A stretch of 64,000 bases of DNA from contig WRAQ01000011.1 in assembly GCA_009780115.1 (NCBI GenBank), positions 3,586-67,585 of the forward strand, given 5' to 3'. The translations under genes and the position numbers were made by a program. The DNA is from Lachnospiraceae bacterium. GTDB lineage: Bacteria; Bacillota; Clostridia; Lachnospirales; Lachnospiraceae. Each line of letters begins with the position of its first letter. Positions within the stretch are counted from its first letter, which is position 1. This document shows positions 1 through 16,247 of the stretch, piece after piece. The notes beneath the pieces were generated by a model. The model was not told the DNA's origin. It ran no database searches and saw nothing but the letters and a program-made list of their open reading frames with translations.

Positions 1-1
1 T

Positions 2-298
2 AACAAACGCTTTAAGGAAATCGTTAAAAATGCCCGCAAGGAGTATCATTATATCATTATTGATACCCCCCCGATCGGCAGTGTTATTGATGGTGCCGTT
101 GTTGCAAAAGTTTGCGATGGTGTGATGCTTGTTATCGAATCAGGGAACGTCAGTTACCGTTTTGCCCAAAAGGTTAAGGAACAGTTGGAAAAAGCCGGAT
201 GCCGTATTCTTGGTGTCGTGCTCAACAAAGTTAATCTTGGCAAAAAAGGTTATTATGGGAAGTATTACGGCAATTATTATGGTAGTTATGGGAATTAA
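2..298 (+). CDS. C-terminal part of a CpsD/Wze-type BY tyrosine autokinase (5' end outside the window)
   Basis: Frame 2 is open from the window edge. Translation reads ...YIIIDTPPIGSVIDGAVVAKVCDGVMLVIESG...CRILGVVLNKV... and ends in the Tyr cluster GYYGKYYGNYYGSYGN before TAA at 296-298. Confidence 0.8.
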   Translation, partial: NKRFKEIVKNARKEYHYIIIDTPPIGSVIDGAVVAKVCDGVMLVIESGNVSYRFAQKVKEQLEKAGCRILGVVLNKVNLGKKGYYGKYYGNYYGSYGN

Positions 299-301
299 TT
301 G

Positions 302-1177
302 ATGACAAACAATAGTAAAAAAATGATGCTTATCAGAAAAATTACTTTCACCGTGTTAGGTATCGGCGGGATTTTTGCTACATATTTCCTTGCCCGGGCC
401 TTATCAGGCGCCCCGATTCTAAACGAACCGGTGCTTGATATTGAAACACCTGCTATTATCGAAGAGGTTGCGGAAGAAATTAATGAAGAAATCAACGAAG
501 TCCCCGCAGCAGTTGCGGCGATGACCGAAGAAGAAATCTTCAGCGTTTTTGCCGGGGCAAGAAATGAAGCCGTCCCGAGTAATAGAGTGGAAGAAGAGCA
601 GTATACCCCGCCGATTGATTTTGAGTCATTATGGGCGGTGAACGACCATGTTTATGCTTGGATAACAGTACCGGGAACCATTATTGATTACCCGGTTCTC
701 CAACATCCGACTGATGATACGAGATACCTTAATTACAATATCGACGGTTCATTTGGATTACCTGGTTGTATTTATACCGAAAAAATGAATGCCAAGGATT
801 TTAGTGACCCCCATACAGTTATCTATGGCCACAATATGAGAAACGGCACGATGTTTGCAAAGCTTCATGAGTTCAGGAAAAGTGACTTTTTCGAAAAAAA
901 CCGCGATATCATCATTTATATGCCCGATAGAGAATTACGTTACAAAATTTTTGCCGCCTATGTGTATGATGACCGGCACCTGATGTACAGCTTTAACTTT
1001 CATAATCCGGATGTTTATGCCGCTTACTTAAAAGGGATATTTGATATTCGAGATATTAGCGCAAATATAGATAAAGATATGATTATAACCAATGATGACA
1101 AAATCATCACCCTGGTGACATGTATAAGCGGAGAGGATGATAAACGCTTATTAGTCCAGGCAGTTTTAATAAATTAA
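302..1177 (+). CDS. srtB: Class B sortase
   Basis: N-terminal TM anchor. Aligns by eye along its length to SrtB. Catalytic His in VIYGHNM, TLVTC Cys motif and a downstream Arg (KRLLVQA). ATG at 302 follows a TTG at 299. Confidence 0.85.
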   Translation: MTNNSKKMMLIRKITFTVLGIGGIFATYFLARALSGAPILNEPVLDIETPAIIEEVAEEINEEINEVPAAVAAMTEEEIFSVFAGARNEAVPSNRVEEEQYTPPIDFESLWAVNDHVYAWITVPGTIIDYPVLQHPTDDTRYLNYNIDGSFGLPGCIYTEKMNAKDFSDPHTVIYGHNMRNGTMFAKLHEFRKSDFFEKNRDIIIYMPDRELRYKIFAAYVYDDRHLMYSFNFHNPDVYAAYLKGIFDIRDISANIDKDMIITNDDKIITLVTCISGEDDKRLLVQAVLIN

Positions 1178-1187
1178 GGGTACAGCA

Positions 1188-2348
1188 ATGAATGAGGGGC
1201 AAAAAAACATAAATGAACAAACAGAACACGAAATAGACGGAGTTAATTTTCCTATCCTTACCGACCGTGATACAATGGAGGGCAAAAAAAGGAGGTTCCG
1301 TTATATTGTCATAAGCATAGGGACATTCCTGCTCTTGATTTTAGTGTTCTTCTTATTATTTAAAGGATATCAAAGTTACGGAAAATCAAGACTTAACCAA
1401 TATGCTGCTTCTTATGGTGAACCCGATATAGTATTATTGCAAGAGAATATCATGGGGATGGGGCTTGGTGATGATTACGAGGAATTACCTGAAGGCCGGT
1501 TAGTTTATAAAGGCCAGGTATATGAATATAATGAGGACATTATGAATTTCCTGGTCCTCGGAGTCGATAGCCGTGATGGTATCGGAGAAATAAAGATACC
1601 TGGCGAGGGCGGCCAAGCCGATATGATTGCTCTGGTGGTTTTAGATGAAAAAGCTAAATCACTTAAAATGATAAACCTCTCCCGTGATATCATGGTACCG
1701 GTGAGAACTTACGATCAAGGCGGTTTTTATACCGGAGTTTATGAAATGCAGCTCGCTCTCCAGTATGCTTATGGCGATGGGCGCGAGGTAAGTATCCGCT
1801 TGATGGAGGAAGCAATATCAGAGTTACTATATGGCATCCCTATTCACGGATCGGGGGCATTGGATTGGTTTACTATTGAAATATTGAATGATGCCGCCGC
1901 TGGCGTACCTGTAACTGTTATTGAAGACCTGACTGCAAGAATGCCCAGGCTTAAAGCAGGAGATAGCTTGACCCTGATGGGGCGGGAAGCATTTTATTAT
2001 GTTCAGTACCGCAATACAGACATTAGTGAATCAAACAATTTGCGGATGGCCAGGCAAAAGCAATACATTTTAGCATTCTTTCAAAGAATAAAGGAAAAAA
2101 CGAGGGGAAATATTACTTTCCCGCTTAAACTCTTTGGGATAGTAAATGAGCATGTTGTGACCAGCATTACCGCCGACCAGGTTGCATATCTAAGTACTGC
2201 GGTATTAGGTAGTTCGTTTTCAGAGAAAGATATGGTATCGGTCGCCGGGGAAATCACACAACCGGGCATATATGAAGAATTTCGGGTCGATGAAGAAGAA
2301 TTAATTGAACTAATCATTAATACATTTTATCGCGAAGTAATAAACTAA
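1188..2348 (+). CDS. LytR-CpsA-Psr (LCP) family glycopolymer ligase
   Basis: Single N-terminal TM. LCP core motifs NFLVLGVDSRDG, GQADMIALVVLD and INLSRD. Confidence 0.85.
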   Translation: MNEGQKNINEQTEHEIDGVNFPILTDRDTMEGKKRRFRYIVISIGTFLLLILVFFLLFKGYQSYGKSRLNQYAASYGEPDIVLLQENIMGMGLGDDYEELPEGRLVYKGQVYEYNEDIMNFLVLGVDSRDGIGEIKIPGEGGQADMIALVVLDEKAKSLKMINLSRDIMVPVRTYDQGGFYTGVYEMQLALQYAYGDGREVSIRLMEEAISELLYGIPIHGSGALDWFTIEILNDAAAGVPVTVIEDLTARMPRLKAGDSLTLMGREAFYYVQYRNTDISESNNLRMARQKQYILAFFQRIKEKTRGNITFPLKLFGIVNEHVVTSITADQVAYLSTAVLGSSFSEKDMVSVAGEITQPGIYEEFRVDEEELIELIINTFYREVIN

Positions 2349-2428
2349 AAATTAAATTATTAAGGTATTAACACATTCCGATGTGCTAATATAGAAACCA
2401 ATCATTCAAGAAAGGAGGTACAGTCCCC

Positions 2429-2983
2429 ATGAAAAGATTTTACGCCCTGTTATTATCAGTAATTTTGATAGTAACCCTGTCGCTTTCAGCTTTTGCAAGC
2501 ACAAGCCCTAAGGCACCTGCGGCACCGGAAGTCAAAACTGATGCACCTTATGTTCCTTCAACGACACCGGCACCTGTAACTGCAGTATCAATTGCTGTAG
2601 CCGATGTTTCAACAGTTGCGGCATCAAGCACTTTGGCTGATCACGCGAAGGATTTATTAGCTAATAAGGATGATTTCCTTACGACCTATGCAATTCCCGA
2701 AGCAGCAAGGCTTGCGGCAGTATTTAACATGAATTTCAGCGGCGAAATCCCGGGCGGCGGATTGCAAGTTCCGATCGTAGTGAACAATGCAGTAGCCGGC
2801 GATTATGTCATCGTTATGCACAGAAAAGCAGATGGCATTTGGGAAGTAGTTGGCCGTGGTATTCTTGGTGATGATTTAACAGTTGTTGCCACATTTACCA
2901 GTTTTTCACCGGTAATGGTCTTAGTAGTAGATGCTGCTGACGTAGCAGCAGTTGGTATTAAAGCGCCTAAAACCGGCGAATAA
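2429..2983 (+). CDS. Secreted Ala/Pro/Val-rich protein ending in APKTGE (sortase-B-like motif, no hydrophobic tail)
   Basis: RBS AAAGGAGG upstream. Signal peptide MKRFYALLLSVILIVTLSLSAFA. The C-terminus is ...GIKAPKTGE followed directly by the stop codon. Confidence 0.6.
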   Translation: MKRFYALLLSVILIVTLSLSAFASTSPKAPAAPEVKTDAPYVPSTTPAPVTAVSIAVADVSTVAASSTLADHAKDLLANKDDFLTTYAIPEAARLAAVFNMNFSGEIPGGGLQVPIVVNNAVAGDYVIVMHRKADGIWEVVGRGILGDDLTVVATFTSFSPVMVLVVDAADVAAVGIKAPKTGE

Positions 2984-2996
2984 AAAAACTGATAAA

Positions 2997-3046
2997 CTGA
3001 TGCCCAGCGGCATCAGTTTAAAGAGAATTGCGTAACAATTCTCTTT
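2997..3046 (+). terminator. Tandem hairpins downstream of the secreted-protein gene
   Basis: CTGATGCC-cagc-GGCATCAG (2997-3016) followed by TTT. Then AAAGAGAATTG-cgtaa-CAATTCTCTTT (3020-3046). Confidence 0.5.
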
Positions 3047-3369
3047 AATGGGCTAACGCTATTCGCGTTAATGTCCCATACAAATCTCGCTTTAAGCGAG
3101 TCGAAACTAGTTTTGAAAAAAAGAAGAAGCCTCGTTTCGTCAGGCACAGTCATGAAGTGCTTGGCAAGTAGGTAATGAGTGAATTGGTTTCAAGCGGTGA
3201 AGGCGCCGGTAAGCCGGCGCCGATTCACCTTACAACTAGGGATATAAGGTAAAATTGCACACAAATCGGGTTTTGTGCAAGACACCTCGCGGAACGTAGC
3301 TTGCTAATGTTTATCAAAACAATAATTATGAAATTGAATTAAATGCATTAATTAAATAAGAGTCAATTA

Positions 3370-4110
3370 ATGGGGGGGCAAATGATGGAAGCTATGTCAA
3401 AATCAGAAATGATTAAAACAATGGAATTACACGCCGAAGCTCCGGCTATAAAGCTTGTATATCAAGCTGAAACGATAGTAGAACATGACGTACATATCAA
3501 ATCAAAAGCATATGAGGCAGTTAAACGTACTTTAGATATCCTATTATCGATAGCTGCTTTAATTCTGCTTTCGCCGGTTTTCCTAATCGTAGCGATTTTA
3601 ATTAAGCTGGAAGACGGCGACCCTGTTATTTTCCGTCAGTTACGGACCGGCAAAGATGGAGAAGAATTTTTCATGTACAAATTCCGGAGCATGTGCAAAA
3701 ATGCACCGGATATGCATGCGGATTTATTGGTATACAATGAAATGCAAAGCGGCCCGGCTTTCAAACTGAAAAATGACCCCCGCATAACAAAAGTAGGAAA
3801 TTTTATCCGGAAAACATCAATCGATGAATTACCACAGCTTCTCAATATCATTAAAGGTGAAATGAGTATTGTCGGCCCAAGGCCGTTACCGACCTATGAA
3901 ACAAAGCAATGTAACGCTTTACATAAAAGGCGTCTCCTTGTTAGACCGGGCCTAACTTGTTATTGGCAAGTAAACGGCCGGAATAATATTGAATTTGATG
4001 AATGGATGGAAATGGATTGGAAATATGTTAAAGAGCGGAGTTTGATAACGGACACGATGATTTTCTTTAAGACTATTGGGGCAGTAATCAGTGGGGATGG
4101 GGCGGCTTGA
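3370..4110 (+). CDS. Undecaprenyl-phosphate sugar phosphotransferase (small WbaP/CpsE-type priming transferase)
   Basis: One TM, then the bacterial sugar transferase core: PVIFRQLRTGKDGEEFFMYKFRSM, PAFKLKNDPRITKVG, DELPQL, SIVGPRPLP. The exact start is uncertain (ATG at 3370, 3382 and 3385). Confidence 0.85.
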   Translation: MGGQMMEAMSKSEMIKTMELHAEAPAIKLVYQAETIVEHDVHIKSKAYEAVKRTLDILLSIAALILLSPVFLIVAILIKLEDGDPVIFRQLRTGKDGEEFFMYKFRSMCKNAPDMHADLLVYNEMQSGPAFKLKNDPRITKVGNFIRKTSIDELPQLLNIIKGEMSIVGPRPLPTYETKQCNALHKRRLLVRPGLTCYWQVNGRNNIEFDEWMEMDWKYVKERSLITDTMIFFKTIGAVISGDGAA

Positions 4111-5369
4111 ATACGAAAACTGGACAATCATTAAATATTTGGCTGGTAAGAATGGATGAAATACTTCCATGCGATGGCGAAAATCCGAGATTGCTTCGGA
4201 TGGGGCTTATTGCTGAAATATTCGCTTCAAAAGGACACCAAGTCACATGGTGGTGCTCTACCTTGAATCGTTTTACAAAAGAGTTTCGATATAATGAAAA
4301 TAAAGATTTACGAATTAATGAAAATCTTATTTTAAAGATGATTCATTCCTACAGATATACAAAGAATATGAGTTTCAAACGAATAAAGCATCATGCGCGT
4401 GAGAAACGTGAATTATATAATCAAATGCTTAAGGAACAGCCGCCAGACATCATATTATCTTCTATGCCATCAATTGAAGCTGCAACAACAGCAGCAAAGT
4501 ACGCAAGAAAAATGAAAGTTCCGTTGTTTATTGATGTGCGTGATACCTTTCCGGATATGTACCTTGAGTTTTGCAGTAAGAAAATACGTCCGTTTCTTAA
4601 GATAGGCATTATACCTTATAAATTAATGCTGGCAAAAACACTAAAATCAGCAAAAGGAATTTTTGCTACTTCGGAAAGATTTCTTGAATGGGCGTTAAAG
4701 TATGCAAAAAGAGAACGGCAAGAATATGATAATGTTTATTTTGTTTCATATCCTGACACAAATATTAATATAGAGAATCAATGTTACGATTTTTGGAAAA
4801 GCCAAAACCTATCCCGGGAAGATTTTATTTGTTGTTTTTTTGGACAATTCGGCTTTACTGTCGATATCGAAACTGTTTTAGAAGCAGCAAGGATTTTATA
4901 TAATGAAAGTGTTGAAGTAAAATTCGTTATTTGCGGCGTTGGAGAAAGATTAGCAAAATTAAAAAAGTCTGTTTCAGATTTAGATAATATTATTTTTCCG
5001 GGCTGGGTTGACCGTAATCATATTGCGGCATTAGGCAAATTATCGTCAGCAGGATTAATGGCATACCGTCCTGGAAATAATTATGAATGGTCTATGCCAA
5101 ATAAATTTTGTGAATATCTTGCGTTAGGCATTACAGTTCTTTTGCAACCGACAGGGGTAATGAAAGAAATGATTGATTGTGAAAAATGCGGTATTCATTA
5201 TAAAAATGCTGATGAACTTGCTAATGCAATTATTCAATTAAAAAAAGAACCGCAAAAATTACAGATGATGAAGCAAAATGCACGTAGCTTATATGATAAA
5301 TCTTTCCGCGCTGATATAACATATGGCAAAATGGTTGATTTCATTGAGAAAAATTATAAGGGAGTGTAA
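4107..5369 (+). CDS. GT4-type (GT-B fold) glycosyltransferase
   Basis: About 420 aa with GT-B-like organisation and a C-terminal E-x7-E-like region (NKFCEYLALG). The TTG start overlaps the upstream stop. Confidence 0.65.
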   Translation: MNTKTGQSLNIWLVRMDEILPCDGENPRLLRMGLIAEIFASKGHQVTWWCSTLNRFTKEFRYNENKDLRINENLILKMIHSYRYTKNMSFKRIKHHAREKRELYNQMLKEQPPDIILSSMPSIEAATTAAKYARKMKVPLFIDVRDTFPDMYLEFCSKKIRPFLKIGIIPYKLMLAKTLKSAKGIFATSERFLEWALKYAKRERQEYDNVYFVSYPDTNINIENQCYDFWKSQNLSREDFICCFFGQFGFTVDIETVLEAARILYNESVEVKFVICGVGERLAKLKKSVSDLDNIIFPGWVDRNHIAALGKLSSAGLMAYRPGNNYEWSMPNKFCEYLALGITVLLQPTGVMKEMIDCEKCGIHYKNADELANAIIQLKKEPQKLQMMKQNARSLYDKSFRADITYGKMVDFIEKNYKGV

Positions 5370-5371
5370 AA

Positions 5372-6469
5372 ATGAAATATCCTTTTGTTATCGTAGGGGC
5401 GGGCCTTGCCGGTTTAACTATTGCTGAACGTATTGCAAATGTTCTAAATCAAAAAGTTCTGATTATTGAAAAACGTCCTCATATAGCGGGAAACGTATAT
5501 GATTTTTATAATGATGATGGAATATTGATTCAGAAATATGGCCCGCACACATTTCATACGAATAATAAAAAAGTGTATGATTATTTAAGCCAATTTACGA
5601 AATGGAGAGATTATCAGCACCGTGTAATGTCTTATGTGAATGGTCATTATGTACCATTTCCTATTTCTATTGAGACGATTAATCAATTATATAATAAAAA
5701 CTTAACATCGGAAGAAATGTTTGAGTTTATTGAAAATCGTAAGGTTTCAATAGACGATGTTCGTACAAGTGAAGATGTCGTTCTTTCCAATGCCGGTATA
5801 GAGCTTTATGAAATATTCTTTAAGAATTTTACAATAAAGCAATGGGGGGTTTCACCGGCAGAGCTGGATAAAACAGTGATATCACGAATCCCTTTCAGAA
5901 ACAACCGTGACACACGGTATTTTACAGATATATATCAAGGTCAGCCGCTCTATGGTTACACACGTATGGCAGAGGCGATGTGTGACCATCCTAATATCAA
6001 CATCATGCTTAAAACGGATTATAAAGACATAATAAATCATATTGAATATGATAATTTGATTTATACCGGCCCTATTGATTATTTTTTCGATTTTTGTTAC
6101 GGTGAGTTAAGATACCGAAGCGTTAGGATGCAATTTGAGACACATGATTTGGAGTCATATCAACCGGCGCCTTCGACGAGATATCCAAATGATTATGATT
6201 ATACTCGTATAACCGAGTTTAAAAAATTAACCGGACAAGTTCACAGTAAAACAACGATTCTCAAAGAATTTCCATGTGATGAAGGAGAGCCTTATTATCC
6301 ATTCCCAACGGAAGAATGGAAAGTTGTTGCGGGGAAATACCGCAAAAAAGCAGAAAATGAAGAAAAGAGCTTTTTCTTGGGACGGCTTGCAGAATATCGA
6401 TATTATGATATGGATGATGTTGTGGAAGCGGCGTTAAATCTATTTAGTTTTTTATATTCGATAAAATGA
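5372..6469 (+). CDS. glf: UDP-galactopyranose mutase
   Basis: FAD fold VIVGAGLAGL. Also YGPHTFHT, the RYRS region and the typical C-terminus LGRLAEYRYYDMDD. Confidence 0.9.
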   Translation: MKYPFVIVGAGLAGLTIAERIANVLNQKVLIIEKRPHIAGNVYDFYNDDGILIQKYGPHTFHTNNKKVYDYLSQFTKWRDYQHRVMSYVNGHYVPFPISIETINQLYNKNLTSEEMFEFIENRKVSIDDVRTSEDVVLSNAGIELYEIFFKNFTIKQWGVSPAELDKTVISRIPFRNNRDTRYFTDIYQGQPLYGYTRMAEAMCDHPNINIMLKTDYKDIINHIEYDNLIYTGPIDYFFDFCYGELRYRSVRMQFETHDLESYQPAPSTRYPNDYDYTRITEFKKLTGQVHSKTTILKEFPCDEGEPYYPFPTEEWKVVAGKYRKKAENEEKSFFLGRLAEYRYYDMDDVVEAALNLFSFLYSIK

Positions 6470-7356
6470 AAAGTGAGGATAATATCTTGGAAGGAAATAT
6501 AAAAGCTTGTGATTTGCGGAAGTTTCAAATAGTATTACTTGATATATTAAAAGAGTTTATAAAAATTTGTGAAACTAATAATTTAACGTATTATGCTGTC
6601 AGTGGTACTGTCTTAGGTGCGGTTAGACATCAAGGTTTTATTCCTTGGGATGATGATATTGATATATCTATGCCAAGAAGTGATTATGAAAGATTTCTCG
6701 AAATTTCATCAATGAGTTTGAAGTCTCCTTATGAACTAAGAACATATACAAACGATGAAAATCATATTTATGCTGTTTCAAAGCTTATTGATAATCGGGT
6801 TAAAATATCAGCACATACTGCAAAAGAAAAAATGAATTATTATGCAAATATAGCTATAATCCCGGCAGATGGTTTGCCTGCTAATAAATTAATAAGACGT
6901 TTTCATATTTATTTATTTCTAATTAAAAAATTTTTATTTAATATTTCTGTTTTTGATAAACTTGTAATACAAGATAAAAAAAGGCCCCCATTAGAAAGCT
7001 TTCTCGTGTGGTTTCTAAATAAGTTTAATATTTCAAGGTTTTTTAATAAGAAAAAAAGAGTTATGGCGGCAGAAAAATTACTCAAAAAATATGCAATTGA
7101 AGAATCAAAATATTGTACTACTCAAATATGGGGTCAGTATAGATTTAAAACTATTTTTCCGATAGATTGGATTGGTAATGGAGTTTTATTACCATTTGAA
7201 GATATTAAAATAAGGGTTCCTATAGAATATAGAAAATATTTAGCACAAATATATGGTGAGGATTATATGGATTATCCCCCGGTAGAAAAAAGAGTAGCAG
7301 CCCATGCATCAGAAGTAATATTTCCTGTCGATGAAACGGATAAAAATTATGAGTAA
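6466..7356 (+). CDS. LicD-family phosphotransferase (phospho-alcohol/phosphonate transfer to glycan)
   Basis: LicD signature YYAVSGTVLGAVRHQGFIPWDDDIDISMPR. The start overlaps the glf stop (ATGA at 6466-6469). Confidence 0.8.
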   Translation: MKSEDNILEGNIKACDLRKFQIVLLDILKEFIKICETNNLTYYAVSGTVLGAVRHQGFIPWDDDIDISMPRSDYERFLEISSMSLKSPYELRTYTNDENHIYAVSKLIDNRVKISAHTAKEKMNYYANIAIIPADGLPANKLIRRFHIYLFLIKKFLFNISVFDKLVIQDKKRPPLESFLVWFLNKFNISRFFNKKKRVMAAEKLLKKYAIEESKYCTTQIWGQYRFKTIFPIDWIGNGVLLPFEDIKIRVPIEYRKYLAQIYGEDYMDYPPVEKRVAAHASEVIFPVDETDKNYE

Positions 7357-8650
7357 AAAAACAGTTTATTTAGTTACAAGTACCGACACTATCCATGGCG
7401 GACATATAGATATCATCCAAAAAGCGGCGGAATTAGGTGAGCTGACCATTGGTGTCCTCACTGATGAGGTCGTTGCAAGTTATAAGCGGTTTCCCCTCCT
7501 ATGTTTCGAAGAGCGCGCTAAGATGTTTTCAGGTGTAAAGGGTGTAGCGAGGGTAGTTAGACAAGATTATTTAGGATATAAAGAATGCTTGCTGGAACAT
7601 AAACCTGACATATTAGTGCATGGAGATGATTGGAAGGAAGGTTTTCTGAAACCACTAAGAGAAGAAGCGATTTCAGTTCTGAACTCATATGGTGGAAAAC
7701 TTGTGGAATTTCCTTATACGTATAATTCTCAATATGAACATTTAGAATATATGCGCAAAAAGCAGGCATCGATTCCCGATGTCCGGCGCGGACGATTAAA
7801 AAAGTTGTTATCGCTTAAACCATTAATAACAGCAATTGAAGCCCATAACGGGATAACAGGGCTTATTGCAGAAAAAGCACAGATATTTGATTGCGGGAAG
7901 CCAAACCAATTTGATGCAATGTGGATATCTAGTTTATGTGATTCTACCGCAAAGGGTAAACCAGATATCGAGCTTGTTGACATGAGTTCGCGAATCAGAA
8001 CGATAGACGATATCATGGAAGTAACGACAAAGCCTATTATATTTGATGGTGATACTGGCGGAATGACAGAGCATTTTTCCTATACTGTAAAAACACTTGA
8101 AAGATTAGGGGTGTCTGCAATTATTATTGAAGATAAAATCGGGTTGAAAAGAAATTCACTATTCGGCAATGATGTAGAGCAGACTCAGATTGATATAGTT
8201 TCATTCTGTGAGAAAATTTCAGAAGGAAAGAATTCTTTGAAAACAAAAGATTTTATGATTATCGCCCGGATAGAGAGCTTAATTTTAGGAAAGGGAATGA
8301 ATGATGCGCTTAAAAGAGCATATTCTTTTGTTGAAGCTGGTGCAGATGGAATCATGATTCACTCAAGGGAAAAGACTCCCACTGAAGTATTTGAATTTTC
8401 AAGAGAATTTAGGAAAAATAATAAATCGACACCTCTTGTTGTTGTACCTTCATCGTTTTCGTCAGTCACCGAGGAAGAGTGTATGAAGCAAGGCATTAAT
8501 ATTGTGATTTATGCAAATCAATTAATAAGAAGTGCCTTTCCGGCAATGATGGAAACGGCGCAAACGATATTGAGGAACAAAAGAGCATTAGAAGCAGATG
8601 AAAGATGTATGTCTATCAATGAAATTATTACACTGATTCCTGAAAAATAA
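7349..8650 (+). CDS. Fusion of a TagD/Fom1-type cytidylyltransferase domain and phosphoenolpyruvate phosphomutase (PepM)
   Basis: N-terminal HxGH nucleotidyltransferase motif (IHGGH, 7394-7405). The C-terminal domain carries the PepM-diagnostic EDK-x5-NS motif (EDKIGLKRNS, 8129-8158) plus DGDTGG. ATG 7349 overlaps the LicD stop; an alternative ATG lies at 7331. Confidence 0.9.
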   Translation: MSKKTVYLVTSTDTIHGGHIDIIQKAAELGELTIGVLTDEVVASYKRFPLLCFEERAKMFSGVKGVARVVRQDYLGYKECLLEHKPDILVHGDDWKEGFLKPLREEAISVLNSYGGKLVEFPYTYNSQYEHLEYMRKKQASIPDVRRGRLKKLLSLKPLITAIEAHNGITGLIAEKAQIFDCGKPNQFDAMWISSLCDSTAKGKPDIELVDMSSRIRTIDDIMEVTTKPIIFDGDTGGMTEHFSYTVKTLERLGVSAIIIEDKIGLKRNSLFGNDVEQTQIDIVSFCEKISEGKNSLKTKDFMIIARIESLILGKGMNDALKRAYSFVEAGADGIMIHSREKTPTEVFEFSREFRKNNKSTPLVVVPSSFSSVTEEECMKQGINIVIYANQLIRSAFPAMMETAQTILRNKRALEADERCMSINEIITLIPEK

Positions 8651-8666
8651 AGAGGAGAAAAGGATA

Positions 8667-9374
8667 ATGAAAGCAATAATTATGGCAGCCGGTAAAGGGT
8701 GCCGGATTTCCAACGAAATAGGAGAAGTACCCAAATCAACCTTAATTATCAATGAAAAGTCAATTATTAGAAATACCGTTGAAATTTTCATTTTATTAGG
8801 CATTGAGCCGATTGTATGCACTGGTTACAAATCTGAAAATATAAAAGAAGCTTTAGCTGGCTTAAAAGTCCGGTATTATCATAATCCGTTCTATGATATA
8901 ACAAACAATATTGTTAGTTTATGGTTTGCCAAAGAGGAGTTAAATGATGATGTAATAATTCTCAGTGCTGACGTCGTGTTTGAAAAGAAAATTGTTGAAA
9001 TATTGATGGTTCAGGATAATCCATTGACAATGACAGTAGATAGTTCTAGAACATTAGATGGTGATTTCTTTTTTAAATTATCTGACGAAGGTCATATTTT
9101 GGAATATGGGCCTGATTTGCCGGAAAATATTAGAAGCTGTGAATCTTTAGGATTGTCTAAAGTCAGGAGTAATGCAATTGAAGTGTTTAGTGCTAGATTG
9201 AATGAAATGATAGATGAAGGAAAACATGCATTAAATTTTGAACGCATTTTTCATTCATTTAATGATGATCAGATTTATCGCAATAGGACGGTAGATGTAA
9301 ACGGTTGTATTTGGCGGGAAATAGATTTTTATCATGATTATGTTAAAGCGAAAAAACAGTTTGAGGTAATTTGA
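8667..9374 (+). CDS. LicC/PntC-like nucleotidyltransferase
   Basis: Strong RBS AGAGGAGAAAAGG. MKAIIMAAGKGCR N-terminus. LicC-like layout through to the C-terminal WREIDFYHDY. Confidence 0.75.
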   Translation: MKAIIMAAGKGCRISNEIGEVPKSTLIINEKSIIRNTVEIFILLGIEPIVCTGYKSENIKEALAGLKVRYYHNPFYDITNNIVSLWFAKEELNDDVIILSADVVFEKKIVEILMVQDNPLTMTVDSSRTLDGDFFFKLSDEGHILEYGPDLPENIRSCESLGLSKVRSNAIEVFSARLNEMIDEGKHALNFERIFHSFNDDQIYRNRTVDVNGCIWREIDFYHDYVKAKKQFEVI

Positions 9375-9375
9375 A

Positions 9376-10380
9376 ATGGATAACAGTATGAGATTATGCT
9401 CAATTTCATCAGTAAGAGATACAATTACTTATGTTCTTAAAAGATATGGGGTAAATCATGAAGACTCTGTGTTAACAGCCGAGATAATGATTGATGGTAC
9501 GTTAAGGGGGCACAAAAATCATGGAATAGAGCGGATATTTCAAATAATTGACGGAATTGAATGCGGAAGTCTTAATGTAACTCCTAAAATAGATATTGTC
9601 AGTTCGGGACCTGCATTTGCAAATCTTAATGCTAATTATTATATTGGCCAACCGGTAGGCCATCAAGCAATGAATATTGCTGTAAATCTCGCAAAAGAAA
9701 CAGGGATTTCTTATGTGGGGGTTATAAATGCCGGGCATCTTGGATCAATGTCATATTATTCAGAAATTGCATCTAAAAAAGGGATGCTAGGTATTGCAAT
9801 GTGCACAACTTCTCCGGCAGTTTCGTTACCTGGAGGCTCAAAGGCATTACTAGGTACGAATCCAATATCATATTCTTTTCCGCTGAGAGAAGAGTTATAT
9901 ACAGCAGATTTTTCAACATCTTCTGTTTCAAGGGCGTTTCTTTTTGAAGCAGATAAAAAGGGAGAAAAAATTCCGGTGGGGCTGGCTGTTGATTCAAACG
10001 GAAATATGACCGAAGATCCCAAAGAAGCTCTTGCTGGAGGATTATTACCATATGGCGGCGGTATAAGAGGTGCTTTAATCAGTATATTAGTATCTATTAT
10101 GGCTGGCCCTCTAATCGGAGGCGTAATTAATAGCGATGTTCTTGGCACCAGATATATGGATAAAAGTCCCAATAAAGGTGATGCTTTTATCTGTATTGAT
10201 ATTGAAAAATTTACTGATATTGATGTTTTTAAATTAGAGTCAGCATCTTTCGTTGATGATTTATTAAATAATTCATCAAGGTTAAGAAAATCTAATAAAG
10301 GTATTCAAAAAGATACCGACTGGGCGCTTACGAAAGTTGAGATATCTGAGGAATTTCATAAACTTTCTATATCTTTATGA
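9376..10380 (+). CDS. Ldh_2 family (malate / L-lactate / sulfolactate dehydrogenase type 2) oxidoreductase
   Basis: HKNHGIERI, GHLGSMSYY and LGTNPISYSFP are typical Ldh_2 blocks. The start lies 1 nt after the upstream stop. Confidence 0.8.
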   Translation: MDNSMRLCSISSVRDTITYVLKRYGVNHEDSVLTAEIMIDGTLRGHKNHGIERIFQIIDGIECGSLNVTPKIDIVSSGPAFANLNANYYIGQPVGHQAMNIAVNLAKETGISYVGVINAGHLGSMSYYSEIASKKGMLGIAMCTTSPAVSLPGGSKALLGTNPISYSFPLREELYTADFSTSSVSRAFLFEADKKGEKIPVGLAVDSNGNMTEDPKEALAGGLLPYGGGIRGALISILVSIMAGPLIGGVINSDVLGTRYMDKSPNKGDAFICIDIEKFTDIDVFKLESASFVDDLLNNSSRLRKSNKGIQKDTDWALTKVEISEEFHKLSISL

Positions 10381-10433
10381 TTTCCACTAAAGGAAGCATT
10401 TGATTTTAGCTATCTATATTTCGGAGGATAAAA

Positions 10434-11699
10434 TTGTTATCATTGGACATATCTGGTAAATCAAAAAAAATAATGAAAATTAATCCAATCTTGTTTTTTT
10501 GGATGCTTTTATTTTTTCCATTTGTACAACCTGTTTATTTTTCTCGAATACCATCAGTTAATAGTTTGTTTAATTATTGGTTAGTATTTTCTTTTTTTGT
10601 AATATTAATAATGCGTATTAAGTTTAAGAAAATGTCATTACCGGCAATGCTTACCATTTTTTTTGTGCTTACCATTGTTTTGAGTACTGTTATTGCTCAT
10701 CCTAGCGAAATTAATAGAGCTTTTTCTTATGCTCTTACAAATATCGGTTTATATTTATTCATAGATTATATGCTGAAAAAAGATACTCGCTTAGCAATTA
10801 ATGTTTTAATGACCACTTTTGAATTGCTCATCTATGCAAACCTGCTAACTGTTATTTTTTTTCCATCCGGCTTATATATAACAATACAAGAAACAGGTTG
10901 GAGTTCTAACATGTCTTGGTTACTCGGTTTACGAAACAGCATACCTTCTTGGATTATTACGGGTATTTGTATTTGCATGATTTATTATTTTTATACTAAT
11001 AATAAACTAAGGTCAATTTTATTTATAAGCGGGGTATTTTTAACATTAGCATTAATTAATATAAATTTCTCATTATACTCAACATCTAAATCAACCCCTG
11101 CTGGAATTATAGTAAGTTTTGTAGTTATACTTATATATTTCTTAATACCTTCAAAAATAAAAACCTCAGGCTTTATTTCTCTGGGAAAAGCAATGTTAAT
11201 GAATTTGATTATTTTTATTGGGTTAGTTTTTTTTCGTTTACAATCTCTTTTTAGTAATTTAATTGCTCAACAATTACTAAAAAATGAAACGTTAACAGGG
11301 CGTGATGCTATGTGGGAAAGAGCTTTGCATGCAATTTCGCAGCATCCGATTTTAGGGTATGGAATTGAACCGCAATTAATGATGGCTCAAAGACTTGGAA
11401 ATATTGCCGCTGTAACAACAACTCATAATACATTCCTAGATATTATTTATCGCGGAGGATTATTATCAACAATTATTTTTTTTATCCTAATTATAGTTAT
11501 TTGTAAAAAAGCTAACACACATAAAAAAGATAAAATTGCTTTCATGATTTCTTATATGATAGCCATATATTTTTTTACTGGGCAAACAGAAGGCTTTTCA
11601 GGTTCAAGAATGTTCATTCTTCTTGCTATAGCAGCTAATATTCCGCTACTTGTTAATTGCATTAGTGAAGCGCGTAAAAATGAGGGAATAGAAACATGA
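10434..11699 (+). CDS. O-antigen polymerase/ligase-like (Wzy-type) polytopic membrane protein
   Basis: About 10-12 hydrophobic helices with a large loop near TGRDAMWERALHAISQHPILGYG. GGAGG lies 6 nt before TTG 10434; an alternative ATG is at 10473. Confidence 0.6.
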   Translation: MLSLDISGKSKKIMKINPILFFWMLLFFPFVQPVYFSRIPSVNSLFNYWLVFSFFVILIMRIKFKKMSLPAMLTIFFVLTIVLSTVIAHPSEINRAFSYALTNIGLYLFIDYMLKKDTRLAINVLMTTFELLIYANLLTVIFFPSGLYITIQETGWSSNMSWLLGLRNSIPSWIITGICICMIYYFYTNNKLRSILFISGVFLTLALININFSLYSTSKSTPAGIIVSFVVILIYFLIPSKIKTSGFISLGKAMLMNLIIFIGLVFFRLQSLFSNLIAQQLLKNETLTGRDAMWERALHAISQHPILGYGIEPQLMMAQRLGNIAAVTTTHNTFLDIIYRGGLLSTIIFFILIIVICKKANTHKKDKIAFMISYMIAIYFFTGQTEGFSGSRMFILLAIAANIPLLVNCISEARKNEGIET

Positions 11700-13639
11700 T
11701 AGTAAGAAAAACTAAGATTGCATCCAAAATAGGTCAATATAAATATATTTCCTTTGATATTTTTGATACTTTAATTAAGCGTAACGTGTCAAAGCCATCG
11801 GATATATTTTTACTTGTTGAAGAAAGATATAATTGTGAGAATCCCGAGGATAAAATAAAAGGATTTCTATATACGCGTAGACAAACGGCGAAAGAAATCC
11901 GCGATATGAACCCTAACAAAGAAATAACCATAAATGAGATTTATGATAAAATACCACTCGAAAAGTCACAGAAAGCTGAATTGAAACGATTAGAAATTGA
12001 TATTGAACTAAAGGCCTGTCAAAGAAATCCGGAGATATATGATTTATATCAAATGTGTTTAAGTCGCAATCAAAAGGTTATATTAACTTCAGATATGTAT
12101 CTAACTCAAGACATAATTGAAATGATATTAGCTAAAAATGGAATTACTAATTATCATAAGCTTTATCTCTCTTCAGAAATCAGTCTTAAAAAGTCAACAG
12201 GAGATCTATTTGATTTTTTATTAAAAGATCTTGAAATATCTCCCAAGAACTTATTACATATTGGCGATAATAAACGTGCTGATCTTATGAAACCTTTTTT
12301 GAGAGGTATAAGAGTATCTTATATACCCAGGCGAAATATAAAAACATTATATATAACAGAAAAAGAAATATATGATTCTACATTAGAAAAAGGATTAGTT
12401 TATTCATTTATTAATAATCAATTAAACTTTTATATTAAAAAAGACAGGGCATTCCGACTTGGCTACGAAGTACTAGGACCTCTAGTTTTTGGGTTTTGCG
12501 AGTTTATTCATAATTATGCAAAAAAAGAAGATATTAATACATTGTTTTTTATGGCGCGAGATGCCTACATAATAAAAAAAGCCTATGAATATATGTTTCC
12601 GGAGAGTTCTATTCGTTATGAATATACCTATATTACAAGAGCAAGCTTACGGATATATTATTTACTTAACAGAAATGGAATAGATGATTTGCACCATACA
12701 ATGTCACCTCACCGAAAATATTCAATTGAAGAACTAATTATGGCAATAAAATTAAATCCAAAAGATTATGAAACAGTTTGTCATAAAGATGGATTGTGTT
12801 TAAATTCAAAAATAAGTGCTAAAGATATTATTAATTATCAAGAATTATATAAAGCATTACAACGTGATATGAAAGAACAGACGGAATCAGTTAATGATTT
12901 AATAATATACTTGAAGCAATGCGGGTTTTATAAGAATGTTGGAATTGTTGACATAGGTTGGTATGGAACCGCTCAGCAAATGCTAAATAGGTTTACTGAA
13001 ACAAATGAATTAAATACAAATACAATCGGCCTTTATTGCGGATTTATTAAAGGTAACAAAATAAAAAATGATATTAATGTTCATGCTTATTGGTATACTT
13101 GTGATGAAATTGAGTGGGAACTAAATTATAAAGATATTTTTTCACCTTTGGAAAATCTTTTATTACCAGCAGAAGGTACAACGCTTGGATATAAAAATAT
13201 TAAAGGTATGGTGACAGCTTTAACAGCAGAACGAGAACAATATCCGGTTAAATGGTTAAGCGGGCTTCATGAAGGTGCTTTACAATTTGTAAAGGATTAT
13301 AATAGCCTTAAATTAACAAATATTCCGATGTATTCTGACGTATCTAATAATCCTTTTAAAAACCTTGTTTCGAAACCTAAATTATGTGATGCTGTAATTA
13401 TTGGTGATTTTGAATTTGAAAATAACAGAACAATGAAGAATAGAAATATTGCAAAACCTAGGAAAAGGATTTGTTATTTTATTTTTCCTTGGTTATTTAT
13501 TAAGGATTTAAAATATTCATATTGGAAAGGCGGGTTTCTTAAAAGAGTATTTTTATTAAATTTAAATTATTTTACTATATATTCATTTATAAAAATGATT
13601 AGTAAGCGAGATAAAAGCAAACAGAAAGGAAATAAGTAA
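11696..13639 (+). CDS. Large HAD-superfamily hydrolase with a C-terminal region of about 440 aa and unknown function
   Basis: HAD motif I (ISFDIFDTLIKR) and motif IV-like (HIGDNKRADL). The C-terminal part has no motif I recognise. The start overlaps the upstream stop. Confidence 0.55.
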   Translation: MIVRKTKIASKIGQYKYISFDIFDTLIKRNVSKPSDIFLLVEERYNCENPEDKIKGFLYTRRQTAKEIRDMNPNKEITINEIYDKIPLEKSQKAELKRLEIDIELKACQRNPEIYDLYQMCLSRNQKVILTSDMYLTQDIIEMILAKNGITNYHKLYLSSEISLKKSTGDLFDFLLKDLEISPKNLLHIGDNKRADLMKPFLRGIRVSYIPRRNIKTLYITEKEIYDSTLEKGLVYSFINNQLNFYIKKDRAFRLGYEVLGPLVFGFCEFIHNYAKKEDINTLFFMARDAYIIKKAYEYMFPESSIRYEYTYITRASLRIYYLLNRNGIDDLHHTMSPHRKYSIEELIMAIKLNPKDYETVCHKDGLCLNSKISAKDIINYQELYKALQRDMKEQTESVNDLIIYLKQCGFYKNVGIVDIGWYGTAQQMLNRFTETNELNTNTIGLYCGFIKGNKIKNDINVHAYWYTCDEIEWELNYKDIFSPLENLLLPAEGTTLGYKNIKGMVTALTAEREQYPVKWLSGLHEGALQFVKDYNSLKLTNIPMYSDVSNNPFKNLVSKPKLCDAVIIGDFEFENNRTMKNRNIAKPRKRICYFIFPWLFIKDLKYSYWKGGFLKRVFLLNLNYFTIYSFIKMISKRDKSKQKGNK

Positions 13640-14659
13640 ATGCATATTATTTATACACTTGATGATAATTTTGCTATGCAGACAGGGGTTTCTTTAACCT
13701 CTTTATTAATGAATAATAAAAATGCGATTGAGATAAATGTACATATTATAAGCCATCAGTTGAGTTTAGAAAACAAGCTGAGATTGGAAAAGTGCATTAA
13801 GGATTATAAGCGCAACGTCTTTTTTTATAATCAATCAGGTATTGAGAAATATTCAAAAAAACTTTATATAACAGATAATTGGTCGCTTGCCACATATTTG
13901 CGCCTCTTTGTTGTAGAAACGCTTCCTATACATGTGGAGCGTGCTATATATATTGATAGTGATACATTAATCATGAATTCGATTGAACCCTTTTGGGAAA
14001 CAGAATTTTTAGAAAATAAAATGGTTTGCGGTGTTACAAGAGATAATTATAGAGTAGTTAATAAGAATCATTATAAGTATTTGAATTTAAATGAAGATGA
14101 TGTATACATAAATGCCGGTATTCTGTTAATGGATATAAATTCATTGAGAAAAATAAATATAACTGATAGATATATTAAATTTATGGAATCTTATGATTTC
14201 ATTTTTCCATGTGTAGATCAAGATGTGATTAATGGTACTTTAAAAGGAAAAATCCAAAGAATTGCACCGGAATATAATGTTGTTACCCCGCTTTTCATGA
14301 AGGGAGGTAAAGAAATTGCAAAAATGAATTTTGCCCATGATAAGGAGTATTATAATCAAATTTTAAGAAGCATGGATTTCCCCGTTATTCTCCACTTCAC
14401 GGGAGGCAGAAATACGCCATATAGGCCATGGTATAAAGGGAGCCTACATCCATATACCGAACAGTGGAGAGAAATAAAATCAAAAACAGTTTGGCGAGAT
14501 ACAGCATTAAAACCTTTGCCAAAAGGTTTTAGAATGTTTCTTAGATGGCTCTTTCGTAAATTACCGACCAGCATTTATATAGCCTATTTCAAACTAAAAT
14601 GTAATAAACGTTTTTTTAATCTGGATTTATATAAGATTAGGAAAAAAATTAATAAGTAA
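13640..14659 (+). CDS. GT8-family glycosyltransferase
   Basis: The N-terminus IIYTLDDNFAMQTGVSLTSLL, the DxD motif in IYIDSDTLI and INAGILLMD are typical of GT8. Confidence 0.8.
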   Translation: MHIIYTLDDNFAMQTGVSLTSLLMNNKNAIEINVHIISHQLSLENKLRLEKCIKDYKRNVFFYNQSGIEKYSKKLYITDNWSLATYLRLFVVETLPIHVERAIYIDSDTLIMNSIEPFWETEFLENKMVCGVTRDNYRVVNKNHYKYLNLNEDDVYINAGILLMDINSLRKINITDRYIKFMESYDFIFPCVDQDVINGTLKGKIQRIAPEYNVVTPLFMKGGKEIAKMNFAHDKEYYNQILRSMDFPVILHFTGGRNTPYRPWYKGSLHPYTEQWREIKSKTVWRDTALKPLPKGFRMFLRWLFRKLPTSIYIAYFKLKCNKRFFNLDLYKIRKKINK

Positions 14660-14699
14660 GCAAGTTATTAAATTCTCAAAATATATAAAGGACAAATAA

Positions 14700-16151
14700 A
14701 TGCCAAGTCTTAAAAGGAATGTTTTTTACCAAAGCATATATCAGATAATAATTACAGTGTTACCTCTTATAACTGTACCTTATATATCAAGAGTTCTTGG
14801 CGCGGAAAATATCGGTATATATTCTTATACTTTTTCCATTACAACATATTTTATATATTTTGCAATGCTAGGTATTATTACTTATGGCAATAGAACTATA
14901 GCGATTGTACGTGACAATAAAGAAAAGCTTAATCAAACTTTCACTGATTTATTTTGCTTACACTTAGGAATATCAGTCGTTGTTTTATTTGCATACATGA
15001 TATTTTGCTTTATTATAGCCGAGCAGTATAAATCCATTTTTTCTATTCAGATATTTCTTATTTTTGCAGCATTGTTAAATATTAACTGGCTTTTTACGGG
15101 ATTAGAACAGTTTAGGCTAACAGTAGCCAGAAGTGCTATTATAAAGATTATTTCTGTTATTTGTGTTTTTGTTTTTGTTAGGGGAGTAGATGATTTATGG
15201 AAATACGCATTAATAATGTCATTAGGTGAATTCTTTTCGCAAGCAATTTTATGGATTATTAGAATGAAATATGTTTCATTTGTCAAGCCTACTTGGAGTG
15301 GTGTTAGTTCACATATAAAACCTATGTGTTTATTATTTATTCCGGTTATTGCAATTAGTATTTATCGTGTAATGGATAAAATTATGCTCGGTATTATGAG
15401 TGAAAAAACTCAATTGGGTTTTTATGAAAATTCAGATAAAATTATTGTTATGATTCTTGGATTTATTTTTGCTTTTAATAATGTAATGATACCGAGAATA
15501 TCAAACATAACCGCTAAAGGTAATTTAGAAGAAAAAATGAAATTAATGCACATTTCGATGAGGTATGTAATATTGTTTGCCTTTGCATTATCCTTTGGTA
15601 TAGCATCAATTTCCAATGATTTTGCATCATTATTTTTTGGACGAGAATTCAAGGATAGTGGAGTATTGCTTGCAGGTTTATGCATCACAATTCCTTTTAT
15701 TGCATTTGGAAATGTTATTTATAAGCAACACCTAATCCCTAATTCAAAGGATAAGATAATAACTATTATATTTGTAATTGGGGCATTAGTTAACATAATA
15801 TCGAATTTAATACTGATACCACGCTTTGAAGCAATGGGTGCAGTAATTGGAACAATAATTGTCGAAATTATTGTATGTATCTTGATGGTGTTTGCTTCAA
15901 GAAAAAGTTTACCGATATTAGATTATATGAAAACTAATATCATTTTTTTCTTTGCCGGAATCGCTATGTACTTTTTGGTTCGTTTTATTGGGACCTTAAT
16001 GAAACTAAGTGTATACGCAATCCTTATTCAAATTTGTATAGGGGCAATATTTTATATTAGTATAACTTTAATATATCTATATAAAACTAAAGATGAAACC
16101 TTTATAAATAATGTATATAAAAGAATTGTTGCATTTAAAAATAAGAATTAA
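14700..16151 (+). CDS. Wzx-type oligosaccharide flippase (MOP superfamily)
   Basis: 483 aa with about 12-14 TM helices. N-terminus is ...ITVPYISRVLGAENIGIYSY. Confidence 0.8.
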   Translation: MPSLKRNVFYQSIYQIIITVLPLITVPYISRVLGAENIGIYSYTFSITTYFIYFAMLGIITYGNRTIAIVRDNKEKLNQTFTDLFCLHLGISVVVLFAYMIFCFIIAEQYKSIFSIQIFLIFAALLNINWLFTGLEQFRLTVARSAIIKIISVICVFVFVRGVDDLWKYALIMSLGEFFSQAILWIIRMKYVSFVKPTWSGVSSHIKPMCLLFIPVIAISIYRVMDKIMLGIMSEKTQLGFYENSDKIIVMILGFIFAFNNVMIPRISNITAKGNLEEKMKLMHISMRYVILFAFALSFGIASISNDFASLFFGREFKDSGVLLAGLCITIPFIAFGNVIYKQHLIPNSKDKIITIIFVIGALVNIISNLILIPRFEAMGAVIGTIIVEIIVCILMVFASRKSLPILDYMKTNIIFFFAGIAMYFLVRFIGTLMKLSVYAILIQICIGAIFYISITLIYLYKTKDETFINNVYKRIVAFKNKN

Positions 16152-16247
16152 TGGAGAATGGTTTTTAAACATAACTTATTTAAATTGCTTAGTGCAATGG
16201 CAATTAGAAATGTTAATATAAAACTTAGTCGAAGGAGGCTTTGAATA

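Follow-up and report, generated by a model that had tools for sequence, protein, structure and literature searches.

A 64-kb stretch of DNA from one Lachnospiraceae metagenome-assembled genome (MAG), hereafter called the window and the reference for all coordinates without a locus name, contains four tightly packed genes which we interpret as a phosphonate head-group module inside a Wzx/Wzy-type cell-surface polysaccharide operon. They encode a LicD-family phosphotransferase, a cytidylyltransferase (CyTase) fused to a phosphoenolpyruvate (PEP) mutase (PepM), a LicC-like nucleotidyltransferase (NTase) and a dehydrogenase of the Ldh_2 family. The last of these belongs to a discrete clade whose genes are linked to pepM in several phyla, and it is probable, judged from sequence and gene context, that the members of this clade are phosphonopyruvate reductases. 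For the complete four-step pathway proposed for the module the chances appear about even. The four genes, and the two domains of the fusion, are the following:

6466-7356, plus strand, LicD-family phosphotransferase, predicted cytidine monophosphate (CMP)-phosphonate:glycan transferase (PF04991, 164 bits, above the gathering score; PWDDDID, an acidic DxD-type motif)
7331-8650 (alternative start 7349), plus strand, bifunctional CyTase-PEP mutase fusion (PF01467 at aa 19-112, PF13714 at aa 157-414)
7349-7726, plus strand, Fom1-type CyTase domain of the fusion, aa 7-132 (HGGH, an HxGH motif, at 7394-7405)
7790-8647, plus strand, PEP mutase domain of the fusion, aa 154-439 (EDKIGLKRNS, an EDK-x5-NS motif, at 8129-8158)
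8667-9374, plus strand, LicC/PntC-like (MobA-like) NTase (PF12804, 34.2 bits, cutoff 27)
9376-10380, plus strand, Ldh_2-family dehydrogenase, predicted phosphonopyruvate reductase (PF02615, 271 bits)

In the proposed pathway the PepM domain, assigned by family membership, would isomerise PEP to phosphonopyruvate (step 1), and the Ldh_2 enzyme would use NAD(P)H to reduce the 2-oxo group, giving 2-hydroxy-3-phosphonopropanoate (phosphonolactate; step 2) and with it the thermodynamic pull that normally comes from a decarboxylase. The reduction of a 2-oxoacid with NAD(P)H is favourable enough to offset the PepM equilibrium. We infer step 2 from the conserved gene context, the relationship of the enzyme to the L-sulfolactate dehydrogenase ComC and the changes in its active site. 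The PepM equilibrium itself is quoted in the literature as lying more than 500-fold towards PEP. Seven early branch-point enzymes are listed in the inventory of Li & Horsman 2022 (PMC8942020), three of which act on phosphonopyruvate without phosphonopyruvate decarboxylase (Ppd), i.e. the aldolase FrbC, the aminotransferase PalB and the reductase VlpB (PF02826); the other reductase mentioned there is only a predicted classical malate dehydrogenase (MDH) of Paenibacillus larvae, and 13% of the neighbourhoods stay unassigned. In a 2026 preprint the known pulls are a decarboxylase, an aminotransferase, a 2-hydroxyacid dehydrogenase and homocitrate-synthase-like enzymes, and VlpB has been applied as a 'PnPy reductase' (PMC11867202).

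A homologue search of 5.8 billion proteins with the Ldh_2 sequence of the window, which matches MCL2718129.1 of a Lachnospiraceae MAG at 100% identity, yielded about 40 homologues at 38-71% identity and at least 210 bits; the next score was 157 bits, at 33% identity or less, and belongs to ordinary Ldh_2 proteins. In a neighbour-joining tree of 39 close homologues, 78 outgroup sequences, AllD, ComC and the MDH of P. horikoshii, 38 of the 39 close homologues formed a pure clade. The apparent non-monophyly under both midpoint and AllD rooting could be traced to the single remaining sequence (P0041), which has the ComC-like residues E146/A259. The clade is characterized by the signature Q56, E130, S146, N252, G257, T258, R259, K267 and D269, of which Q56, E130, T258, K267 and D269 are shared with ComC. 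To judge from sequence searches the clade is rare: about 3,800 Ldh_2 proteins were found at E<=1e-30 among 1.84 billion 50%-identity representatives by profile search, and 13 of the 144 newly listed top matches carry at least seven of the nine signature residues. Two long proteins (P0259, 777 aa; P0298, 574 aa) were considered as PepM-Ldh_2 fusions and dismissed, as they do not have the clade signature.

The gene context of the clade was compiled from nine Pfam-annotated loci together with loci from genome and metagenome scans with a profile built on an 11-sequence alignment. A PEP mutase is encoded within 10 kb of the Ldh_2 gene in 16 of the 19 distinct loci carrying the clade signature and near none of 25 comparison loci, 23 of which lie outside the clade and two of which have a degraded signature (L019, L024). 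This linkage is significant by Fisher's test (p = 2e-9), also when the outgroup is restricted to contigs of 8 kb or more (p = 7e-6), and the three clade loci without PepM sit on short or one-sided contigs (L010, 7.3 kb; L015, 2 kb; L022, with a downstream flank of 1.8 kb). PepM and Ldh_2 genes are directly adjacent in four loci (L003, L023, L048 and L049), and the motif EDKxxxxxNS is present in every checked PepM that partners a clade Ldh_2. No Ppd could be identified in the clade loci, either by Pfam annotation, by a family census of the remaining 122 neighbouring open reading frames (ORFs) or by tblastn with true Ppd sequences. The loci span Bacillota, Chlamydiota, Alpha- and Gammaproteobacteria and fall into three architectures:

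Architecture A, glycan type: the window and L001
Architecture B: radical S-adenosylmethionine (SAM)-SPASM protein, PepM and Ldh_2, then GFO_IDH, glyceraldehyde-3-phosphate dehydrogenase (GAPDH)-like, acyl-carrier or three ATP-grasp ligase genes: L003, L048, L049 and L023
Architecture C: PepM, SAM_HAT_N, Ldh_2, PhyH, B12-radical-SAM protein, adenylate kinase, HIT, NUDIX and DUF2608: L005, L050 and L052-L054

The presence of Ldh_2 beside PepM across phyla and in unrelated clusters, always without Ppd, is the behaviour expected of a phosphonopyruvate-consuming enzyme. In architecture B, L003 (2513-12149) continues after the common core with GFO_IDH, GAPDH-like, 2-Hacid_dh and CTP_transf_3 genes, L048 (5102-10596) with acyl carrier protein, AMP-ligase and BtrH genes and L049 (2881-10065) with three ATP-grasp ligases plus an MFS gene; these are probably phosphonopeptide or other natural-product clusters that share the first two steps. 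Architecture C, exemplified by L052 (Odyssella thessalonicensis, 4099-12208) and L053 (a Chlamydiales MAG, 6286-11760), has a SAM_HAT_N gene (SAM hydrolase/fluorinase-like) whose stop overlaps the start of Ldh_2. Its hosts are probably intracellular or amoeba-associated bacteria, and this Ppd-free cluster looks like an undescribed phosphonate pathway with a possibly nucleoside-linked product. We put it at evens that the clade represents a previously unrecognised, non-homologous PepM-coupling reductase, probably yielding L-phosphonolactate, and thereby a branch point new to early phosphonate biosynthesis that is used in three or more settings. This balanced estimate covers jointly the settings themselves, namely CMP-phosphonolactate destined for a Gram-positive surface polysaccharide, the radical-SAM/ATP-grasp natural-product clusters, and the SAM-hydrolase-like/adenylate kinase/HIT/NUDIX cluster of intracellular symbionts (Odyssella, Chlamydiales).

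The closest orthologous cluster, L001, encodes an Ldh_2 protein 71% identical and a fusion 76% identical to those of the window. It keeps the trio of CyTase-PepM, NTase and Ldh_2; instead of LicD it has a CDP-alcohol phosphatidyltransferase-like membrane protein (25 bits, cutoff 22). A 310-aa ORF considered as a hidden LicD in L001 proved to be unrelated. An HMGL-like gene of the same locus, considered as an FrbC-type synthase pull, is weakly aldolase-like and sits with KdsB, a haloacid dehalogenase (HAD) phosphatase and a DUF115 protein, and was read as part of a Kdo-like sugar module. A second copy of the L001 cluster, L002, comes from the same ENA sample (ERZ27257348) as L056. The Lachnospiraceae loci nearest to that of the window share sample or contig names; the host is described as a gut-type Lachnospiraceae bacterium, and the bin name Th196P3bin150 hints at a termite gut.

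Outside the Ldh_2 clusters, the closest relatives of the window NTase (64% and 60% identity) are found in the sister clusters L055 (5556-14596) and L056 (8001-13715), which encode a CyTase-PepM, a true Ppd, a LicC-like NTase, a split transketolase, a short-chain dehydrogenase/reductase (SDR) and TagF-like proteins. The window fusion is 64% identical to that of L056 and 53% to that of L055; its PepM is 28-37% identical to the PepMs of other Ldh_2-linked clusters. The Ppd gene of the sister clusters is the immediate neighbour of PepM and takes the slot that holds Ldh_2 in the window. As judged from these comparisons, the tailoring slot of one and the same CyTase-PepM plus NTase scaffold can be filled by Ldh_2 or by Ppd together with transketolase and SDR, which argues that Ldh_2 functionally replaces the decarboxylase branch. 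From their gene content, the sister clusters would seem to make a polyol-phosphonate by extending phosphonoacetaldehyde with the transketolase, and to polymerise or attach it in a teichoic-acid-like manner. The preliminary description of this DNA had proposed that the Ldh_2 enzyme takes the place of the decarboxylase as the phosphonopyruvate-consuming step, and this proposal is supported by the discrete clade, its linkage to PepM, the Ppd-free loci and the scaffold swap.

The absence of any conventional pull from the window, noted earlier from the ORF translations, was borne out by a systematic search. A greedy non-overlapping set comprised 48 ORFs of at least 90 aa, the 46 longest of which were scanned against Pfam (all but two ORFs of 92 and 107 aa). 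No TPP_enzyme_N/C, aminotransferase or HMGL-like domain was found in the 46 scanned ORFs, and no thiamine diphosphate motif GDG-x(20-32)-NN in any of the 48. Two genuine Ppd proteins from the sister clusters (TIGR03297, 468 and 438 bits, cutoff 312.5) gave no tblastn match at E<=1 against the 64-kb window. The ORF at 11696-13639 was considered as a hidden decarboxylase and rejected, being a ribofuranosyltransferase/HAD protein (matching PDB 7shg and Bcs3). The module is decarboxylase-free as far as 64 kb can show. A conventional pair of Ppd and 2-aminoethylphosphonate (2-AEP) transaminase elsewhere in the genome could instead supply 2-AEP to the NTase and LicD, with the Ldh_2 enzyme unrelated or accessory to it. 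Such a supply would be compatible with the view being limited to 64 kb of the MAG and with the closest NTase and PepM relatives working in Ppd-containing clusters. It is nevertheless highly improbable in our estimation, as it would make the cross-phylum linkage of PepM and Ldh_2, in 16 of 19 loci that are all Ppd-free, a coincidence, and as Ldh_2 occupies in the window the slot that Ppd has in the sister clusters.

The likely function of the Ldh_2 enzyme as phosphonopyruvate reductase can also be approached from its own sequence and structure. Its closest solved relative by sequence is ComC of M. jannaschii (PDB 2x06, 197 bits), followed by archaeal MDH (178 bits) and DpkA (86 bits; 1wtj and 2cwh were among the matches). 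An AlphaFold2 (AF2) model of high confidence (pLDDT 94.9) gave only Ldh_2 structures as top matches in Foldseek, and the best was again 2x06 (E 6e-37, TM 0.83). The analogy with ComC drawn initially thus has a basis in both sequence and fold. On its score, the protein is a relative of ComC rather than a ComC, because it reaches 277.9 bits against the ComC equivalog NF040650, below the cutoff of 500; moreover, its genomic neighbours in the window are PepM and NTases, and comA/B/DE-like genes are not among them. A D-2-hydroxyacid dehydrogenase domain (PF02826/PF00389), as in VlpB, was not detected in the Ldh_2 protein or in the 46 scanned window ORFs.

The catalytic residues of the family are present in the window protein as H49, R53 and H121, which correspond to His44, Arg48 and His116 of AllD. 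Alanine mutants of AllD Arg48 and His116 are inactive (PMC3527362), and the equivalent R53 and H121 do not vary within the clade, whereas Gln replaces H49 in 6 of the 39 members. Two substitutions separate the clade from ComC: Glu141 of ComC, equivalent to the first-shell substrate residue Asp141 of AllD, is Ser146 in 38 of 39 clade members, and Ala252 of ComC is Arg259 in 36 of 39. Arg259 directly follows T258, the position aligned with the first-shell residue Met251 of AllD. The net charge change of +2 predicted from these alignments (one acidic side chain lost, one basic gained) fits a change of substrate from a monoanionic sulfonate to a dianionic phosphonate.

The Ldh_2 family also includes delta1-piperideine-2-carboxylate/N-methyl-amino-acid dehydrogenases, represented among the structural matches by 1wtj and 2cwh. 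A DpkA-like imine reductase could combine phosphonopyruvate with an amine to form an N-substituted, opine-like phosphonoalanine, which would then be activated and transferred, and such a reductive amination would likewise pull the PepM equilibrium. The clade stands nearer to ComC and archaeal MDH than to DpkA by the bit scores given above and has the ComC-specific residues Q56, E130, T258, K267 and D269, so that we consider an imine reductase improbable and prefer a reductase of the 2-oxo group.

The four genes had been described as translationally coupled, and the tight packing was confirmed for most of the junctions: glf and licD overlap in ATGA (6466-6469), which holds the stop of the one and the start of the other, the licD stop (7354-7356) overlaps the start of the fusion by 26 nt (ATG 7331) or 8 nt (ATG 7349), and a single nucleotide separates the NTase stop (9374) from the Ldh_2 ATG (9376). 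The junction of fusion and NTase is different, as the fusion stop (8650) is followed by a 16-nt gap with the NTase's own Shine-Dalgarno sequence (AGAGGAG) before the ATG at 8667, instead of an overlap. The HxGH and EDK-x5-NS motifs of the fusion lie exactly where they had first been placed. The fusion scores 396 bits against the PEP mutase equivalog TIGR02320 (cutoff 319.55) and 148 bits against the phosphonopyruvate hydrolase model; in the alignment its PEP mutase motif ends in NS, as is typical of PepM, where the phosphonopyruvate hydrolase 2dua has TS. Its CyTase domain is most similar to that of Fom1 (PDB 5x3d, 126.8 bits, E 9e-36), and TagD is matched at E 2e-8.

Phosphonolactate would next have to be converted to CMP-phosphonolactate (step 3). 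The Fom1-type CyTase domain is a good candidate for this reaction, because phosphonolactate is the carboxylated form of 2-hydroxyethylphosphonate, the substrate that Fom1 cytidylylates (PMC6697681). PntC and FrbH, relatives of the LicC-like enzyme, likewise activate phosphonates (PMC6697681), and alternatively it may be the LicC-like NTase that activates phosphonolactate, or this enzyme may act on a second substrate. It has weak PDB matches to LicC (1jyk, E 2e-8) and PntC (6pd1, E 6e-6) in an alignment spanning aa 1-106. In these two enzymes the amine-binding acidic residues that set specificity for 2-AEP or phosphocholine are Glu104/Glu196 (Tde-PntC) and Asp105/Asp192 (LicC) (PMC6697681). The pairing of two NTases, which the preliminary description had left unexplained, is less puzzling in that it is not peculiar to this locus: the pair appears, from the clusters compared, to be a conserved property of the cluster lineage that is independent of the head group, and triple PepM fusions with both NTase types make up 2.8% of PepMs (Rice et al. 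2019, PMC6697681).

A transferase for the CMP-activated group is present throughout these clusters (LicD, CDP-alcohol phosphatidyltransferase-like or TagF-like) and the acceptor varies. LicD enzymes move phospho-alcohols from CDP or CMP donors onto glycans. In the window, the adjacent glycosyltransferases (GTs) build the repeat unit, and LicD would attach the phosphonolactyl group to one of its hydroxyls (step 4). A phosphocholine (Lic) system was rejected, since neither a choline kinase nor a choline transporter was found among the Pfam-scanned ORFs of the window.

The module is placed between glf and wzy in a run of plus-strand genes (3370-18390) that encodes a complete Wzx/Wzy-type heteropolysaccharide pathway, preceded by genes for a LytR-CpsA-Psr ligase and a sortase. 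The other members of this run, identified by domain search unless stated otherwise, are the following:

3370-4110, plus strand, priming sugar-phosphate transferase
4107-5369, plus strand, GT4 glycosyltransferase
5372-6469, plus strand, UDP-galactopyranose mutase (glf)
10434-11699, plus strand, Wzy polymerase
11696-13639, plus strand, HAD-phosphatase plus ribofuranosyltransferase-like protein (by its match to PDB 7shg/Bcs3)
13640-14659, plus strand, GT8 glycosyltransferase
14700-16151, plus strand, Wzx flippase
16248-17231, plus strand, FkbM methyltransferase
17275-18390, plus strand, NAD epimerase/dehydratase

From this gene content the product would be a surface heteropolysaccharide, but a phosphonolipid or a soluble or teichoic-acid-type product has to be weighed against a Wzy-dependent repeat-unit decoration. 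The membrane CDP-alcohol phosphatidyltransferase-like protein that stands in for LicD in L001, and the TagF-like polymerases of the sister clusters, point in that direction. The window module, however, sits between glf and wzy inside a complete priming-GT/GT/Wzy/Wzx operon, with genes that overlap or nearly do so, and a LytR-CpsA-Psr ligase gene lies upstream; a product other than the decorated repeat unit therefore seems to us a minor prospect. The G+C content is 28-35% in 2-kb windows from 4 to 18 kb and 38-47% in most of the remaining ones, and this low-GC glycan island would fit a variable surface-polysaccharide locus subject to horizontal exchange. A promoter and terminator scan of positions 1-19500 gave the same counts as shuffled sequences, with no notable internal plus-strand terminator.

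Several neighbouring genes deserve mention. The 647-aa protein encoded at 11696-13639 gave no above-threshold Pfam match. It begins with a HAD-like N-terminus and over its full length is similar to the dual phosphatase/ribofuranosyltransferase of PDB 7shg and to the capsule polymerase Bcs3, because of which the glycan probably contains ribofuranose besides the galactofuranose indicated by glf. At the edge of the locus are a TupA-like ATP-grasp gene (18413-19363, minus strand), the product of which is a possible amidating enzyme for a carboxylate of the polymer, perhaps the one in phosphonolactate, and a gene for a 705-aa GHMP-kinase/NTP-transferase fusion (19435-21552), combining a sugar-1-kinase with a nucleotidyltransferase. 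Further downstream, a few kb from the glycan locus, the minus strand (24417-29500) encodes PhoU and a phosphate ABC transporter of the Pst type with its binding protein, two permeases and ATPases; hybrid histidine kinases adjoin (29599-33636). A link, if any, between phosphate status and the phosphonate decoration is conceivable.

A number of points weigh against the pathway as proposed, and they concern both the reductase and the fate of its product. The window Ldh_2 protein and its orthologue P0002 are without the C-terminal F-x-x-P-G cofactor motif of the family (Gly306 in AllD), as F-x-x-P-G-E at aa 300-310 is replaced by RLRKSNKG and RLEKKAKG, respectively, in these two Lachnospiraceae proteins; in addition, position 231, a Lys family-wide, is Arg in the window protein and its 71%-identical orthologue. 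Together these changes may reflect altered cofactor binding. The altered C-terminus is nevertheless conserved between the window protein and P0002 and is confidently folded in the AF2 model. Either of the two NTases could be the one that activates the phosphonate, and Ppd and AEP transaminase genes, or further tailoring genes, could lie elsewhere in the MAG, beyond the 64-kb window. The evidence for the predicted role of the clade is genomic, not biochemical. Finally, in other architectures the product of Ldh_2 is clearly processed further, by the products of radical SAM, GFO_IDH, GAPDH-like and ATP-grasp genes, so that phosphonolactate need not be the final head group in the window locus either.

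This last point leads to the alternative that phosphonolactate is only an intermediate and that the decoration is a derivative of it, formed for instance by FkbM O-methylation, by TupA-like amidation or by unlinked enzymes leading to a dihydroxypropylphosphonate-type group. It accords with the extra tailoring enzymes of other PepM-Ldh_2 clusters (rSAM-SPASM, GFO_IDH, GAPDH-like, 2-Hacid_dh, ATP-grasp), and both an FkbM gene (16248-17231) and a TupA-like ATP-grasp gene (18413-19363, minus strand) are present in or beside the window locus, which is a further point against unmodified phosphonolactate. However, the usual substrates of FkbM and TupA enzymes are sugars or uronic acids, no further tailoring gene belongs to the trio conserved between the window and L001, and L001 has neither an FkbM nor a TupA gene next to the trio. 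We regard a derivative as unlikely, although it is a more serious contender than the imine reductase, the external 2-AEP supply or the other product types discussed above. Of the probability that does not fall to the transfer of phosphonolactate itself, most belongs to four alternatives: a head group that is modified further, another acceptor, reductive amination and a Ppd pathway outside the window.

Among known systems, the proposed pathway shares the logic of the VlpB branch (valinophos / dihydroxypropylphosphonate pathway), in which the NAD(P)H-dependent reduction of phosphonopyruvate to phosphonolactate, instead of decarboxylation, is the PepM-coupling step (PMC8942020); the same reaction is proposed here for Ldh_2. 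The two enzymes differ in that VlpB is a member of the D-2-hydroxyacid dehydrogenase family (PF02826) and the window enzyme of Ldh_2 (PF02615), with an unrelated fold; VlpB serves small-molecule natural products of actinomycetes, whereas CMP activation and attachment to a glycan are predicted for the window product. The two may also differ in stereochemistry, ComC-type enzymes making L-2-hydroxyacids. With ComC, the closest solved relative and the (R)/L-sulfolactate dehydrogenase of the coenzyme M pathway, the enzyme would share the type of substrate, since sulfopyruvate is the sulfonate isostere of phosphonopyruvate; it is distinguished from ComC by Ser146/Arg259 in place of Glu141/Ala252 and by its genomic partner, PepM instead of comA/B/DE.

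The downstream part of the module resembles the PntC/LicD pathways for 2-AEP, in which PepM is fused or adjacent to cytidylyltransferases, LicD-like transferases occur in glycan loci and a CMP-phosphonate is the donor (PMC6697681). Those pathways carry Ppd and AEP transaminase and install 2-AEP; the window module lacks both and has Ldh_2. The fusion has the same domain order as Fom1 and a strongly similar CyTase domain, and its presumed substrate is a carboxylated analogue of that of Fom1, but Fom1 belongs to the biosynthesis of the antibiotic fosfomycin, where it follows Ppd and an alcohol dehydrogenase, without transfer to a glycan. The module would thus work like the VlpB branch (reduction) combined with the tailoring logic of PntC/LicD, with a reductase from a different, unrelated family. 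No Ldh_2-type phosphonopyruvate reductase was found in the literature searched, most subscription-journal papers lying outside that search, so that this is absence of evidence only; within the same bounds, the novelty attributed to an Ldh_2-based pull in the preliminary description still stands.

Genome mining for phosphonates currently sorts pepM neighbourhoods by the presence of Ppd, PalB/PnaA aminotransferase, VlpB reductase or FrbC synthase, and leaves the rest unclassified (Li & Horsman 2022). An Ldh_2 clade with a recognisable signature would add a classifier to this scheme and would assign a first step to several types of orphan cluster. The glycan head group predicted for the window locus, phosphonolactate or a derivative of it, appears to be undescribed; if confirmed, it would represent a new anionic decoration of the Lachnospiraceae surface (carboxylate plus phosphonate ester), with a charge different from that of the groups known to date, 2-AEP and phosphocholine, which are zwitterionic.

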